A stretch of DNA of 2,241 nucleotides, taken from assembly GCF_003334815.1 (NCBI RefSeq), contig NZ_QOWO01000087.1; one strand, given 5' to 3'. Shown here one piece after another: positions 1 to 2,144 of the stretch. Both the position numbers and the translations under genes were made by a program. Every line of letters starts with the position of its first letter. Positions within the stretch are counted from its first letter, which is position 1. The notes beneath the pieces are model-generated. The model saw nothing but the letters and a program-made list of their open reading frames with translations, had not been told where the DNA came from and ran no database searches. The DNA is from Escherichia coli. GTDB taxonomy: Bacteria > Pseudomonadota > Gammaproteobacteria > Enterobacterales > Enterobacteriaceae.

Positions 1-183
1 GTCCTCAAAATTCCAGGAGCGCCAGATCAACGTGCCATCCTGACGGACAACCAGGCGAAAATGCGTTCCCTGATCATCCTCGATAAAGACATTCCGGTAC
101 TGTGTAACAACGGTTTCAGCACACTCGCGGGTGAATGCCCCATCGGGTAGTTCATGAATCATTTCATCGGATTTGTTCATCAT
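1..183 (-). CDS. Partial CDS (N-terminal ~60 codons; 3' end lies beyond position 1) of a hypothetical plasmid leading-region protein immediately downstream of ssb
   Basis: Minus-strand frame is open from ATG at 180 (alternative ATG at 183) to the window edge with no stop: [60 protein letters not shown]... GGAG (complement of 188-191) lies 7 nt upstream of the ATG at 180. Amino-acid composition is ordinary, not GC-artefact-like. Same strand as ssb, 53 bp downstream. Not in the supplied ORF track, presumably because no stop is in the window. Family not recognised. Confidence 0.55.
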
Positions 184-236: not shown

Positions 237-764
237 TCAGAATGGCGCATCATCGTCGTAGCCATAAGGAGGTTCTGGCTGTTGTTGAGGCTGAGGCTCT
301 GGCTGCGCGGCCTTACGTCCACGGCCTTTCGTTTTCGCGCCACCTTTTTTCGTCGCGTCAGCACTCTGTGGCTGCCCATTCTGCTGAGGCTTCGGTTGCG
401 CCTGAGCGTTCTGCTGTGGTGCACGTCCCAGCATCTGCACGGTGCCCGTGGTCTTAACAAGAATTTCAGTGACGTAACGGGTGATACCGTTATCTTCCCA
501 GCTACGGGTGCGAAGCTGACCTTCGATGTAGACCTGCGCACCCTTGCGCAGATATTCACCTGCCACTTCCGCGAGCTTGCCGAACAGCACCACGCGGTGC
601 CATTCCGTCTGCTCCCGCATCTCCCCCGTCTGTTTGTCACGCCAGCTTTCTGATGTGGCCACCTGCAGGTTTGCCACTGCGCCCCCGTTGGGGATGTAAC
701 GGACTTCCGGATCATTGCCCAGACGCCCGACGAGGATGACCTTGTTGATACCACGTGCACTCAT
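237..764 (-). CDS. ssb: Single-stranded DNA-binding protein, plasmid-type SSB (175 aa)
   Basis: The translation matches the E. coli SSB OB-fold block nearly residue for residue as I recall it ([81 protein letters not shown]), followed by a Gln/Pro/Gly-rich disordered linker and the acidic C-terminal tip DDDAPF (E. coli: DDDIPF). AGGAGG (complement of 770-775) sits 5 nt upstream of the ATG at 764. Stop TGA is the complement of 237-239. Confidence 0.95.
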
Positions 765-769
765 AAGAA

Positions 770-775
770 CCTCCT
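770..775 (-). promoter_or_regulatory. Shine-Dalgarno sequence of ssb (AGGAGG, 5-nt spacer)
   Basis: The minus strand reads CAGTCAGGAGGTTCTT-ATG. Confidence 0.85.
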
Positions 776-833
776 GACTGAAAGATGTGAGATAAACCGG
801 ATACCGGCGACGGGACGTTCATGTGCCCCTTCA

Positions 834-851
834 GAGGAGCGAAAGCTCCTC
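834..851. other. Hairpin with 7-bp stem and GAAA tetraloop (GAGGAGC-gaaa-GCTCCTC)
   Basis: Perfect complementarity 834-840/845-851 with loop 841-844. On the plus strand the loop is a GNRA-type sequence. Confidence 0.6.
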
Positions 852-856
852 CTGCC

Positions 857-890
857 GTCCACTTCACAGGGGTTTCTCCCCGCAGTGGAC
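857..890. other. Imperfect two-part hairpin (outer stem 857-863/884-890, inner stem GGGG 869-872 / CCCC 878-881, loop tttct)
   Basis: GTCCACT...AGTGGAC outer arms are perfectly complementary (7 bp); the inner GGGG/CCCC stem is separated from it by an internal loop. Confidence 0.5.
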
Positions 891-922
891 CTTTCCGATG
901 GGGGCCCGTTTACCGCCTCACG

Positions 923-934
923 GGACAGCTGTCC
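923..934. repeat. 12-bp perfect palindrome GGACAGCTGTCC (contains CAGCTG)
   Basis: The sequence equals its own reverse complement. A second CAGCTG-centred palindrome, GCAGCTGC, occurs at 1270-1277. Confidence 0.7.
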
Positions 935-939
935 GGGGG

Positions 940-987
940 CGGACGCAAAATTTTTAGCCGGGTTCATGGCTAAAAATTTTGTGGCCG
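940..987. repeat. Perfect 14-bp AT-rich inverted repeat (946-959 / 968-981) with 8-nt spacer, extendable imperfectly to 940-987
   Basis: CAAAATTTTTAGCC-gggttcat-GGCTAAAAATTTTG: every one of 14 positions pairs. Flanking 940-945/982-987 add four Watson-Crick pairs with one G-T and one mismatch. It is the only AT-rich perfect hairpin in an otherwise GC-rich region. Confidence 0.85.
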
Positions 988-1092
988 GTGCATCTCACCC
1001 TGGACAGATGGAACGGGAGGGGGTTACGTCTGCCCCCCGGAAAGTCCACAGCGGGAAACAGGCCGCAGGGGTGGCGGCAGGAGGGAAGACTG

Positions 1093-1134
1093 CTGCGCCA
1101 TCAGGCGCAGTTTCCTCACACACCGTCAGGTGTG
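1093..1134. other. Two adjacent tetraloop hairpins (CTGCGCC-atca-GGCGCAG at 1093-1110; CACACC-gtca-GGTGTG at 1119-1134)
   Basis: Perfect 7-bp and 6-bp stems confirmed by base pairing, separated by 8 nt. Confidence 0.6.
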
Positions 1135-1150
1135 CAGGGAGCGCAGGTCA

Positions 1151-1185
1151 CGGCGCGACAGGGGCGGCGCGACCGGAACGGTCGC
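1151..1185. repeat. Direct repeat CGGCGCGAC x2 (1151-1159, 1165-1173); the second copy overlaps a hairpin GCGACC-ggaac-GGTCGC (1169-1185)
   Basis: Exact 9-bp direct repeat with 5-bp spacer, read directly. The hairpin has a 6-bp perfect stem. Confidence 0.6.
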
Positions 1186-1358
1186 TGCAAGCCGGGTTTT
1201 CACGCATCGGACCGTAGCGGCAGCCCGAAACCGCGCCAGCGGGTTCGGCGGAGACTGGCGGGTGCGCCAGCAGCTGCCTGTCGGAGTCGGGCCTGACGAC
1301 CGGATGCCGCCAGGCAGCCGGGAGCCGAAGTGGGCGCAATAAAAGACAGCCAGAAACG

Positions 1359-1371
1359 GTGACAGTGTCAC
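1359..1371. repeat. 13-bp palindrome GTGACA-g-TGTCAC; candidate operator for a dimeric DNA-binding protein
   Basis: Six-bp arms are perfectly complementary around a central G. It lies in the only AT-richer patch (about 1331-1410) of the intergenic region. The operator role is inference. Confidence 0.45.
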
Positions 1372-1373
1372 GG

Positions 1374-1382
1374 AATATCACA
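1374..1382 (-). promoter_or_regulatory. Possible extended -10 element (TGtGATATT on the minus strand) for conventional transcription toward ssb
   Basis: Minus strand reads TG-t-GATATT. The hexamer keeps the A at -11 and T at -7 but has G at -12, and there is no good -35. A start site about 7 nt downstream would fall inside the 1359-1371 palindrome. Weak, by-eye call. Confidence 0.2.
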
Positions 1383-1434
1383 CCTGTTCCCTGCATACAG
1401 CCATACACTACCTTCTGACCGGAAAGCCGGGCCG

Positions 1435-1453
1435 GCAGCGCCGCAGGCGCTGC
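1435..1453. other. Hairpin with 8-bp GC stem and 3-nt loop (GCAGCGCC-gca-GGCGCTGC)
   Basis: Perfect pairing 1435-1442/1446-1453. Confidence 0.6.
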
Positions 1454-1466
1454 ACCCCGCATTTCC

Positions 1467-1525
1467 GGCAGGCGTCAGCCTGCCAGGGGTTTTCGCGCGG
1501 GCTGACAGGCGGCCTCCACCGCCTG
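1467..1525. other. Two GC-rich hairpins in the 3' untranslated region of the 63-aa ORF (1467-1484 GGCAGGC-gtca-GCCTGCC; 1506-1525 CAGGCGG-cctcca-CCGCCTG), the second nested inside CAGGGG (1484-1489) / CCCCTG (1526-1531)
   Basis: Perfect 7-bp stems confirmed by pairing. Neither is followed by a U-tract on the minus-strand RNA, so an intrinsic terminator is not supported. Confidence 0.5.
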
Positions 1526-1533
1526 CCCCTGTA

Positions 1534-1725
1534 TCACCTGTTTCTGCTGCCCTGAAGGATGTAGTGACCGCCGAGGAATACAGCCTGCTGATTCGCCACA
1601 AAATCGCAGATTTCATCAACAATCTGCGCAGTGGTGAGCGGTTTCTGCCCCATTTCACGACGCCGCGCATTAATCACGGCTTTGTAATTGCGCAGAATTT
1701 CGCGGGTTTCTGTGCTGATATTCAT
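1534..1725 (-). CDS. Small hypothetical protein (63 aa, mildly basic), translationally coupled to the upstream 140-aa ORF
   Basis: The ATG (complement of 1723-1725) overlaps the upstream stop TGA (complement of 1722-1724) in an ATGA arrangement. GGGGAG lies 8 nt upstream of the ATG. Composition is ordinary. It may belong to a small leading-region protein family (DUF905-like is a recollection of typical plasmid annotations, unverified). The competing track ORF 1368-1670 is GC-artefact-like. Confidence 0.6.
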   Translation of the reverse strand: MNISTETREILRNYKAVINARRREMGQKPLTTAQIVDEICDFVANQQAVFLGGHYILQGSRNR

Positions 1726-2144
1726 GACATGTGCTCCCCGTCCAGCGCCTGTAACACAACGTCCATTGCTTCGCGTTCTTCCCTGACGAATGCGTCACCG
1801 TCGCCCCCGTTCTCGCTCCCGACGGCATACAGGCGCTTCATTTCACTGCCTGCCAGCGCCATCACTTTTTCCAGCATCACCGCCGGAACTGTCACCTGAC
1901 GGCTGGCGCGCTTTTCTTCCATCAGCTCACGAACAACGTCGTGAACAATGCTGACATCCGCACCATGCTCAAAGGCATCGTCCAGTCGCTGCATGACGGT
2001 TTCCAGCTCATCGTCTGTCAGACTCCAGTCCTGGGCTATGTGACGCACATCCCCACGGGTCAGCACCACGGCAAAAACGCATTCACTGTCCGGCACGTCT
2101 GTGTTCAGCACTTCGCGGATAATTTCTTTAACAGTACAGTACAT
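1722..2144 (-). CDS. Hypothetical strongly acidic protein (140 aa; about 30 Asp+Glu vs 14 Lys+Arg by my count), leading-region gene of unknown function
   Basis: Long clean ORF with AAGGAG (complement of 2153-2158) 8 nt upstream of the ATG at 2144. Same orientation as ssb. Family not recognised with certainty (DUF1380-like is a recollection, unverified). Confidence 0.75.
   Translation of the reverse strand: MYCTVKEIIREVLNTDVPDSECVFAVVLTRGDVRHIAQDWSLTDDELETVMQRLDDAFEHGADVSIVHDVVRELMEEKRASRQVTVPAVMLEKVMALAGSEMKRLYAVGSENGGDGDAFVREEREAMDVVLQALDGEHMS

Follow-up and report, generated by a model that had tools for sequence, protein, structure and literature searches.

Class-1 single-stranded DNA (ssDNA) promoters, which include Frpo1 and Frpo2 of F and ssi1 to ssi3 of ColIb, act in the zygotic induction of ssb and psiB and in complementary-strand priming. 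Early expression of ssb in F requires Frpo2 (PMC9849209). For ssi1 to ssi3 of pESBL, start sites have been determined by 5'-RACE, and these promoters are active only until conversion to double-stranded DNA (PMC12672017). Complementary-strand synthesis is primed in vivo by Frpo transcripts (bioRxiv 10.64898/2026.01.09.698686), and the operon controlled from the ssi3 position is described in PMC10104558. Through ssDNA promoters, genes for protective functions (SSB, the SOS inhibitor PsiB and anti-restriction proteins) are expressed minutes after plasmid entry, before the DNA is double-stranded. This early protective expression aids the establishment of resistance plasmids in new hosts.

The minus-strand origin of filamentous phages and the ssoA origin of rolling-circle plasmids are likewise folded ssDNAs, on which the sigma-70 holoenzyme makes a primer RNA. 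Such RNA-polymerase-dependent single-strand origins have been likened to ssDNA promoters of the type considered here (PMC7690428). They differ in that only a short primer is made and no genes are driven, and they have no sequence relationship to the element described below, which also found no match when used to search a phage collection.

The window analysed is a stretch of 2,241 nucleotides from Escherichia coli (NZ_QOWO01000087.1), belonging to a plasmid of type IncI-gamma/K1. All of its genes are on the minus strand; positions upstream of ssb thus carry larger window numbers, and the template strand, which is also the one transferred, is the plus strand. Between ssb and a co-oriented 63-aa open reading frame (ORF) lies a non-coding gap of 769 bp (765-1533) with a GC content of 0.60-0.70, compared with 0.50-0.58 in the flanks. 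A first-pass annotation made from the letters alone had already remarked on the length and GC-richness of this gap, and on both points it was right. The features of the window, in order of position, are as follows.

237-764, minus strand: plasmid ssb, 175 aa, first gene of the ssi3 operon
765-830, minus strand: proximal ssb leader, as read from the sequence
831-1161, plus strand: ssi3/Frpo3 class-1 ssDNA promoter (very probable), assigned by identity to ColIb-P9 Frpo3 and by ssDNA fold
852-1080, plus strand: main imperfect hairpin with 82 base pairs, from the pair table and an alignment of five copies
988-997, plus strand: conserved bulge of about 10 nt in the 3' arm (GTGCATCTCA), just before the CCC-TGGACA helix
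1001-1006, plus strand: candidate -35 element, TGGACA, matching TTGACA at five of six positions
1024-1031, plus strand: mismatched internal loop (TTACGTCT), a candidate pre-melted -10-like region 17 nt after TGGACA
1093-1110, 1119-1134 and 1141-1156, plus strand: small perfect hairpins, of which the published element has three at its 3' end
1133-1204, plus strand: block A, a conserved flank also present in F Frpo1 and Frpo2 (92%)
1205-1340, plus strand: block B (type B1), GC-rich with multiple hairpins, not included in published ssi3
1341-1420, no strand assigned: block C, a variable A-rich spacer in which homologues align poorly and differ by many indels
1421-1533, no strand assigned: block D, with three neighbouring hairpins immediately beyond the 63-aa ORF stop codon
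1534-1725, minus strand: conserved 63-aa ORF, last gene of the upstream klcA-like/DUF1380 operon
1722-2144, minus strand: DUF1380 gene, overlapping the 63-aa ORF

The ssb product matches the plasmid SSB family NF010292 of NCBIfam with 368 bits (cut-off 265 bits) and is annotated as SSB in NZ_CP024481. Its Shine-Dalgarno sequence, AGGAGG, is the reverse complement of 770-775 and is located 5 nt ahead of the ATG. On the other side of the gap, the 63-aa ORF is annotated in all related plasmids, and its counterpart in Citrobacter braakii is stop-free with 62% amino-acid identity.

Nucleotides 831-1161 are identical to Frpo3 (ssi3) of ColIb-P9 at 329 of 331 positions (99.4%), where the reference is AJ238399.1:11381-11711 as given in Supplementary Table 2 of PMC11541004. 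Identity is 86.6% to Frpo2 and 79.8% to Frpo1, and the published T-strand sequences match the plus strand of the window. One of the two differences from ColIb-P9, T to A at 956, makes an A-T pair from a T-T mismatch near the apex, and the other, A to G at 1069, affects an unpaired position. The element also occupies the place and orientation that ssi3 has on the transferred strand of the IncI1 plasmid ColIb-P9, upstream of ssb in an IncI leading region with psiB, psiA and ardA. The co-oriented array runs ssb, DUF905, psiB, psiA and ardA, and a second promoter copy in the same leading region shares 99.7% identity with Frpo2. The plasmid with the best match is a conjugative one (MOBP, MPF_I), and the element is found in more than 5000 enterobacterial plasmids, most of which are conjugative.

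These observations, together with the fold described below, make it very probable that 831-1161 is the IncI-plasmid ssDNA promoter ssi3 (Frpo3), a member of 'class 1' in the scheme of Wen 2025. It is homologous to an experimentally characterised Frpo/ssi member of this class and, as is typical of the class, it lies in the leading region upstream of genes templated by the transferred strand. The first-pass annotation had proposed an Frpo-like ssDNA promoter upstream of ssb, and the identity, context and plus-strand fold support this proposal. It had further allowed for a diverged variant with a differing architecture; this is not the case, as the element is the described IncI promoter itself. 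The window adds no new biology; it demonstrates that a reading from sequence alone can recognise an ssDNA promoter, and the present analysis marks which part of the intergenic region corresponds to the known one. The annotation had treated all of 765-1533 as the element, which holds for 331 of the 769 bp and fails for the distal portion of about 370 bp (1162-1533), which is outside the published ssi3.

The same annotation suggested a comparison with the F Frpo regions as well as those of ColIb-P9, and here the similarity is confined to the apex of the hairpin and block A. Frpo2 of F (ssp1b), found upstream of ssbF, has the genomic position and role assigned to the window element and shares with it an architecture consisting of an apical AT-rich helix, a 3'-arm bulge, a CCC-TGGAC helix, an internal loop and a GCCCC helix. 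BLAST alignment to the window is limited to two segments, the apex (925-1007, about 80%) and block A (92%). The lower stem of Frpo2 has an unrelated sequence and is longer, and its distal block is of type B2 rather than B1. Frpo1 (ssiD), the founding member of the family, has the apex (929-1016, 77%) and block A in common with the window, and is located upstream of ygeA/ygeB rather than ssb. A PhiX174-type primosome assembly site such as ssiE of F was also considered and set aside: this PriA-dependent ssi has no similarity to the window and matches only its own F locus (L002:17373-17562).

When folded as ssDNA, 831-1161 reaches -103.7 kcal/mol (z = -11.25), and the plus strand contains a long imperfect stem, which the first-pass annotation had advised looking for together with -35 and -10 boxes in its 3' arm. 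A stem-loop of this length, imperfection and stability on the transferred strand is characteristic of class 1. The apical loop (960-967) closes a perfect AT-rich helix formed by 946-959 and 968-981 (AAAATTTTT), which resembles an UP element. There are 86 consensus pairs in the alignment of five IncI-type copies, of which eight exhibit compensatory changes, and the same hairpin architecture is present in 11 class-1 homologues. The bulge at 988-997 is mostly unpaired in all 11 of these homologues when folded; its sequence, with a CATYT core in most copies, is conserved in most homologues and not in a Serratia candidate. For the main hairpin, the plus strand is more stable than the minus strand by 10.6-15.5 kcal/mol. 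This advantage exceeds the effect of composition (z = -2.7 to -5.2 against composition-matched shuffles).

Hairpins are also abundant in the gap as a whole. Counting perfect local hairpins with a stem of 6-14 bp and a loop of 3-12 nt, there are nine in the gap versus 2.24 +/- 1.40 expected, and only one of 500 dinucleotide shuffles reached nine or more. This corresponds to 11.7 hairpins per kb, compared with 3.3-3.8 in the flanking genes, and the whole-gap ssDNA fold is -219.6 kcal/mol (z = -9.1). The earlier description of the gap as hairpin-dense is therefore correct; its figure of at least ten takes in loop-less palindromes as well.

Two explanations other than an ssDNA promoter deserve mention. 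Perhaps a protein-coding gene was disrupted and left the gap as its remnant, or the gap codes for a 104-aa 'hypothetical protein', which PGAP places at 1148-1462 on the minus strand (RefSeq WP_001434357.1). Mechanical ORFs of 68-110 aa are indeed present, but none of the seven gap ORFs matches NCBIfam, and in a tblastn frame test the homologues display stop codons in frame, switches of frame, and indels whose lengths are not divisible by three. Every frame appears to align merely because the DNA is conserved, and the adjacent conserved 63-aa ORF behaves quite differently in the same test. We consider a coding function extremely improbable, in agreement with the earlier statement that the gap holds no credible ORF. 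The homology found is to ssi3 rather than to a broken gene or a known unrelated element, either of which the first-pass annotation had named as an outcome that would speak against its proposal. The hairpins might instead act as RNA, in the form of a structured 5' leader, a riboswitch or an sRNA of the ssb mRNA. Under any promoter model the leader transcript includes some of the 5' arm, and as RNA this leader has modest structure (z = -2.4). However, no Rfam family is matched: a scan of the whole window at E <= 1 returned only two chance matches (E about 0.7-1), to an archaeal snoRNA model with 15 bits compared with a gathering score of 45. Moreover, the excess stability of the main hairpin is on the template and not the mRNA-sense strand, invariant G:T pairs are kept that would be C-A mismatches in RNA, and the literature places the activity in ssDNA. 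An RNA-level function thus appears very unlikely.

The sequence identity, the genomic context and the strand-specific, conserved fold are direct observations on this locus. By analogy with the literature on Frpo1/2 of F and ssi1 to ssi3 of pESBL, 831-1161 would be expected to support ssDNA-specific transcription and priming. During conjugation, the plus strand of the window would arrive in the recipient as ssDNA, and 852-1080 would snap back on itself, mimicking a double-stranded promoter with its long imperfect hairpin. This hairpin would be bound by the sigma-70 RNA polymerase of the host, which would transcribe toward lower coordinates with the 5' arm as template. The result would be early, short-lived expression of ssb and of the genes that follow it (ykfF, yfhA, psiB and psiA), and the transcript may double as a primer from which the complementary strand is synthesised. 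Completion of that strand would abolish the hairpin and turn the promoter off.

The promoter elements of ssi3 and the Frpos were reportedly mapped by Nasim in 2004, Masai and Arai in 1997, and Bates in 1999. For promoters of this class, the -35 and -10 boxes would be expected to be rebuilt within the stem, with mismatches near the -10. In the window, a sigma-70 consensus scan of both strands found no site and no canonical -35/-10 pair, and the best scores of position weight matrix (PWM) scans of both strands in eight homologues are below 6 bits with no positional conservation. These results reproduce the earlier failure to locate such a pair in the long stem, and consequently any assignment of promoter boxes is weak. 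Our best guess, made with low confidence from the sequence, is that TGGACA (1001-1006) might serve as the -35 and the mismatched TTACGT (1024-1029) as the -10. TGGACA lies in a fully paired helix opposite 930-935, and at its position the homologues have TGGAC[AGT] in nine of 11 cases and TGGATG in the other two. In the candidate -10, T1025 and T1029-T1031 are unpaired according to the pair table. An equivalent internal loop is found in all 11 class-1 homologues with a weak consensus, YTRYNT, and the PWM score is 2.7 bits. These candidate boxes would imply, again with low confidence, a start site at about 895-900 on the minus strand.

Two other arrangements were rejected. The bulge at 988-997 could serve as an alternative -10 (model B, with 989-996 as the -10 and a -35 beside the loop), but this -35 is unconserved and is missing in the insect and Citrobacter copies. 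Model B, which predicts a start at about 930-935, is compatible with the Frpo construct of Samuel 2024. In model C, the boxes would lie in the 5' arm. There, F-type copies carry a much better promoter-like pair, TTGAGA-N17-CATACT, which was noted by eye and is not among the top PWM-scan matches. IncI copies lack it, and the window counterpart, TGGACC-N17-TTTACC, is weak. Model C is thus convincing in F-type copies only, and it is hard to square with the truncated but still functional construct of Samuel 2024.

The distal region (1162-1533) is pieced together from conserved hairpin blocks, which accompany class-1 promoters in many cases, though not in all. Block A includes the hairpin GCGACCG-GAA-CGGTCGC at 1169-1185 and was found by exact-pattern scan in contigs of Citrobacter, Lelliottia and Klebsiella. 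Homologues of block B with 77-79% identity are present in Citrobacter braakii (three copies) and Citrobacter sp. FP75. Together, A and B form a module of about 200 nt (1133-1340), which in IncI, IncF and Citrobacter plasmids adjoins many class-1 promoters on their 3' side (template strand). Block D is probably the 3' end of the upstream operon. Its portion at 1463-1533 is 98.6% identical to F and continuous with the upstream genes. Block D has a fold as RNA of the minus strand (z = -2.7) and another as ssDNA of the plus strand (z = -3.9), with no U-tract terminator.

What this mosaic means can be viewed in two ways. It may be a non-functional spacer, composed of recombination debris between promoter repeats and the 3' untranslated tail of the upstream operon, in which similarity is kept through gene conversion and not selection; we give this explanation a probability only slightly short of even. 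The alternative B1 and B2 blocks and the hypervariable A-rich block C point in this direction, as does the homology in L007, which ends at about 1330, just after block B, with a group II intron ltrA gene some 600 bp further on. So does the continuation of block D identity into the upstream genes, and the distal region folds with no more than moderate significance, z being about -3.3 for both strands. Less easily accommodated are several hairpins with compensatory changes between E. coli and Citrobacter versions, and the order of hairpin, block A and block B, which is kept in distant hosts.

The other view is that the entire 769 bp is one functional unit, with A and B as an accessory ssDNA element of class-1 promoters, perhaps an insulator against mispairing of the promoter hairpin or a polymerase barrier or termination zone. 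We regard this as doubtful. A and B belong to a 680-bp unit repeated at ssi2 and ssi3, and the hairpins that they adjoin are of differing types, both in IncF plasmids and in each of the three copies from Citrobacter braakii. Furthermore, across the 5000 best plasmid records the identity of block B never falls below 95%, against a divergence of 13-20% for the hairpins next to it, although gene conversion between repeats could instead explain this high identity. The consensus structure of block B has 59 pairs, including 10 with compensatory changes, and the template strand of the Citrobacter A/B copies folds better than composition predicts (z = -1.9 to -2.5). In the window, by contrast, the strand preference of blocks A and B is fully explained by composition (z = -0.4). 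An ssi1-type copy is without block B and F carries B2 in its place, the F ssiD fragment listed as a known active element stops before block A, and the timing of conversion in F is similar on both sides of Frpo2, with no roadblock seen at that site. The published roadblock is ssp2, of class 2, and not the Frpo2 locus, and a roadblock role for the module was accordingly discarded. A binding site for YfjB/HerB was likewise dropped, there being no sequence motif from ChIP-seq. That the A/B module is a functional ssDNA element in its own right, outside the published Frpo/ssi definitions, is in our estimation unlikely, though with some real chance. Such an element might protect or insulate the hairpin of the promoter, or deal with polymerases coming from the upstream operon and, if functional, would widen what counts as a class-1 promoter unit.

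In pESBL and F, the ssDNA promoters of classes 2 and 3 likewise lie in the leading region and consist of large hairpins on the template strand (Wen 2025, PMC12672017), and like class 1 they are active only before conversion to double-stranded DNA (PMC12672017). They have no sequence similarity to the element at 831-1161. The plasmid also carries class 2 repeats, which occupy other positions (L001:1323-1676 and 10860-11211).

There are only two nucleotide differences, in 331 positions, between window 831-1161 and Frpo3 (ssi3), the class-1 single-stranded-DNA (ssDNA) promoter of ColIb-P9 (329/331 identical). This bears out the first-pass annotation, which had proposed that the gap upstream of ssb is an ssDNA promoter. 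Identity of the element to ColIb-P9 Frpo2 is 86.6% and to Frpo1 79.8%, F ssiD (Frpo1) matches at the apex only (75% over 80 nt), and F ssiE aligned to the window gives no match. Judged from sequence, the window element is the described ssi3/Frpo3 class-1 ssDNA promoter, essentially the same as the ColIb-P9 reference, and given this near-identity it is not novel. The Frpo/ssi reference sequences, taken from Supplementary Table 2 of Samuel et al. and given there as the transferred strand, align to the window plus strand, which is therefore both the transferred strand and the template of ssb. The genes in the window are all on the minus strand.

1-180, minus strand: DUF905 gene, start only
237-764, minus strand: ssb, plasmid SSB family NF010292 (368 bits)
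765-1533: gap between ssb and the 63-aa ORF, 769 bp
1534-1725, minus strand: 63-aa ORF, overlapping the DUF1380 gene
1722-2144, minus strand: DUF1380 gene, overlapping the 63-aa ORF

Deletion of Frpo2, the F counterpart of the window element, which lies upstream of ssbF, abolishes early expression of ssb and yfjA in transconjugants (PMC9849209). The elements ssi1-3 of the IncI plasmid pESBL are 'class 1' ssDNA promoters with starts mapped by 5'-RACE, and this class is the strongest of three, its activity ending at conversion to dsDNA (PMC12672017). Frpo1/2 (ssp1a/b) transcripts are in vivo primers of complementary-strand synthesis (bioRxiv 10.64898/2026.01.09.698686), and the ssi3 operon (ssb, ykfF, yfhA, psiB, psiA) has been recognised as a unit and as a target of evolution (PMC10104558). 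By analogy with this literature, the window element belongs to a described family whose mechanism is known, its activity being taken from its relatives.

The gap had also been described as GC-rich, hairpin-dense and devoid of a credible ORF, and all three descriptions hold. Its GC content is 0.60-0.70 versus 0.50-0.58 in the flanks, and its 769 bp contain 9 perfect local hairpins (stem 6-14 bp, loop 3-12 nt) versus 2.24 +/- 1.40 expected from dinucleotide shuffles, wherein 9 is reached in 1 of 500. Hairpin density is 11.7 per kb, compared with 3.3-3.8 per kb for the genes on either side, and the plus strand of the gap folds as ssDNA at -219.6 kcal/mol (z = -9.1). Mechanical ORFs are present in the gap, the longest being 110 aa. 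They have zero matches in NCBIfam, and in homologous DNA stops, frame switches and indels interrupt every one of their frames; the gap is read as non-coding. Unlike these, the 63-aa ORF is cleanly conserved, with 62% amino-acid identity in Citrobacter braakii. One of the mechanical ORFs is annotated in RefSeq/PGAP as a 104-aa 'hypothetical protein', WP_001434357.1, within this hairpin-rich non-coding DNA (window 1148-1462, minus strand; 9384-9698 in NZ_CP024481, the best-matching plasmid, hereafter L001). Because stops and frame shifts break its frame in homologous DNA, it is very probably a spurious gene call, now propagated across thousands of plasmid records.

For the plus strand of 831-1161 the predicted folding energy is -103.7 kcal/mol (z = -11.25), with the following features.

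852-1080, plus strand: long imperfect hairpin, 82 pairs
960-967, plus strand: apical loop, 8 nt
Apical helix, plus strand: perfect, 14-bp, AT-rich
988-997, plus strand: bulge of ~10 nt in the 3' arm, GTGCATCTCA
998-1007 with 929-938, plus strand: CCC-TGGACA helix, fully paired
Between the CCC-TGGACA helix and the internal loop, plus strand: partly mismatched stretch
1024-1031, plus strand: internal loop
1032-1037, plus strand: GC helix
1093-1110, 1119-1134 and 1141-1156, plus strand: three small hairpins 3' of the long hairpin

This fold is kept in five IncI-type copies, among which several G:T pairs are invariant and 8 of 86 consensus pairs carry compensatory changes. The plus strand is favoured over the minus strand by 10.6-15.5 kcal/mol in all five, whereas composition-matched shuffles give a strand bias of only about -3 to -4 kcal/mol (observed z = -2.7 to -5.2). 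According to these folding models, the hairpin belongs to the template strand. The order of its features recurs in 11 class-1 homologues (IncI ssi1-3, F Frpo1/2, and versions from an R100-like plasmid, Serratia, an insect metagenome, Salmonella and Citrobacter). Of the two substitutions relative to ColIb-P9 ssi3, the one at 956 (T to A) puts an A-T pair where the reference has a T-T mismatch beside the apical loop, extending the perfect apical helix to 14 bp.

The earlier failure to locate a -35/-10 pair was reproduced: a sigma-70 consensus scan returned 0 sites, and PWM scanning of 8 homologues, on both strands, found no canonical pair. Three models for the location of the boxes were compared. 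In the favoured one, to which we give an even chance, the boxes would reside in the 3' arm of the hairpin, which would serve as the non-template strand, and the AT-rich apex would work like an UP element. The candidate -35 is the paired TGGACA at 1001-1006 (5/6 match), and TGGAC[AGT] occupies this position in 9 of the 11 class-1 homologues. A -10-like TTACGT (1024-1029) would follow 17 nt beyond the -35, within the pre-melted internal loop, and the predicted start would be at ~895-900 on the minus strand. This model fits literature that describes the boxes as 'reconstructed' within the stem and puts an A+T-rich UP element upstream of the -35. It is also consistent with a truncated Frpo construct that ends 17 nt past the internal loop and is still functional (Samuel 2024). 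A model that takes the bulge as the -10 has no conserved -35 to offer, and one that places the promoter in the 5' arm is convincing in F-type copies only. The bulge is mostly unpaired in all 11 folded class-1 homologues, with a CATYT core in most copies, and has no assigned role if TGGACA is the -35.

Positions 1162-1533 fall outside the ssi3 element as published. Four blocks emerge when the window is compared with F, R100-like IncF plasmids, the ssi2 copy and contigs from Citrobacter.

1133-1204: block A, 92% identity with the DNA flanking each of the two F Frpo copies; hairpin GCGACCG-GAA-CGGTCGC
1205-1340: block B (type B1), at least 95% identical in the best 5000 plasmid hits
1341-1420: block C, A-rich, variable, many indels
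1421-1533: block D, three hairpins directly past the 63-aa ORF stop

Block D is 98.6% identical to F, with identity continuing into the upstream genes, and is probably the 3' end of the upstream operon; we read block C as a spacer. In the Klebsiella IncF plasmid L007, the match to the window ends at ~1330, just past block B, and ltrA, a gene for a group II intron reverse transcriptase, is annotated ~600 bp beyond that end (L007 about 1370-1970). If the intron interrupts this region, then blocks C and D tolerate disruption.

The conserved distal module formed by blocks A and B is the sole loose end, and is not described in the Frpo/ssi literature consulted here. It might serve the promoter unit as an accessory ssDNA structure, or its blocks might be repeats homogenised by gene conversion, without a function of their own. 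The consensus fold of the two blocks has 59 pairs, 10 of which show compensatory changes. Block B shares 77-79% identity with its counterparts in Citrobacter sp. FP75 and in C. braakii, which has three copies, and is replaced in F by an alternative type, B2, which also occurs in C. werkmanii, Lelliottia and C. portucalensis. The motif GGC(G/A)GAGAC at 1247-1255 (GGCGGAGAC in the window) is near-invariant across the otherwise unrelated types B1 (IncI, R100-like, C. braakii) and B2 (F, C. werkmanii, Lelliottia). The motif sits between hairpins and could not be linked to any known protein or primase signal. An essential role for the module is disfavoured because block B is missing from the ssi1-type copy, the F ssiD fragment given as the known active element stops short of block A, blocks A and B in the window show no strand preference beyond that expected from composition (z = -0.4), and folding significance of the distal region overall is moderate and alike for the two strands (z = -3.3 and -3.4). 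In C. braakii, a gene start, a long hairpin, block A and block B follow one another in this order three times, with three different hairpin types. We consider an accessory structure unlikely, while homogenised repeats are a credible reading that falls just short of probable.

The closest plasmid match, L001, is IncI-gamma/K1, MOBP and MPF_I, and its leading-region array reads klcA-like antirestriction gene, DUF1380, 63-aa ORF, gap, ssb, DUF905, (IS21), psiB, psiA, ardA. The IS21-family element ISEc12 (istA/istB; L001:5168-7470) separates the DUF905 gene from psiB, a site that is occupied in other plasmids by a ParB-like yfhA/yfjB gene; as reported by Benz 2023, yfhA loss can increase transfer rates in some hosts. 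L001 also carries a second copy of the window element (L001:138-463), which matches Frpo2 at 99.7% identity. There is also a pair of ~355-bp repeats, 92.7% identical, located upstream of ardA and of the klcA-like gene (L001:1323-1676 and L001:10860-11211). They are the counterparts of the 'class 2' ssDNA promoters of Wen 2025 and have no sequence relationship with the window element.

The gap DNA is found in >5000 plasmid records from Escherichia, Klebsiella, Salmonella and Shigella, with 2-3 copies per record among the matches listed, and 4327 of the best 5000 records are typed as conjugative. Enterobacterial leading-region DNA, 92-99.7% identical, also appears in three GTDB contigs labelled Oscillibacter, Streptomyces morookaense and Erysipelotrichaceae (L010-L012), which represent Firmicutes MAG contigs and one Streptomyces genome. 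Contamination or mis-binning, rather than true host range, is the most likely explanation for these.
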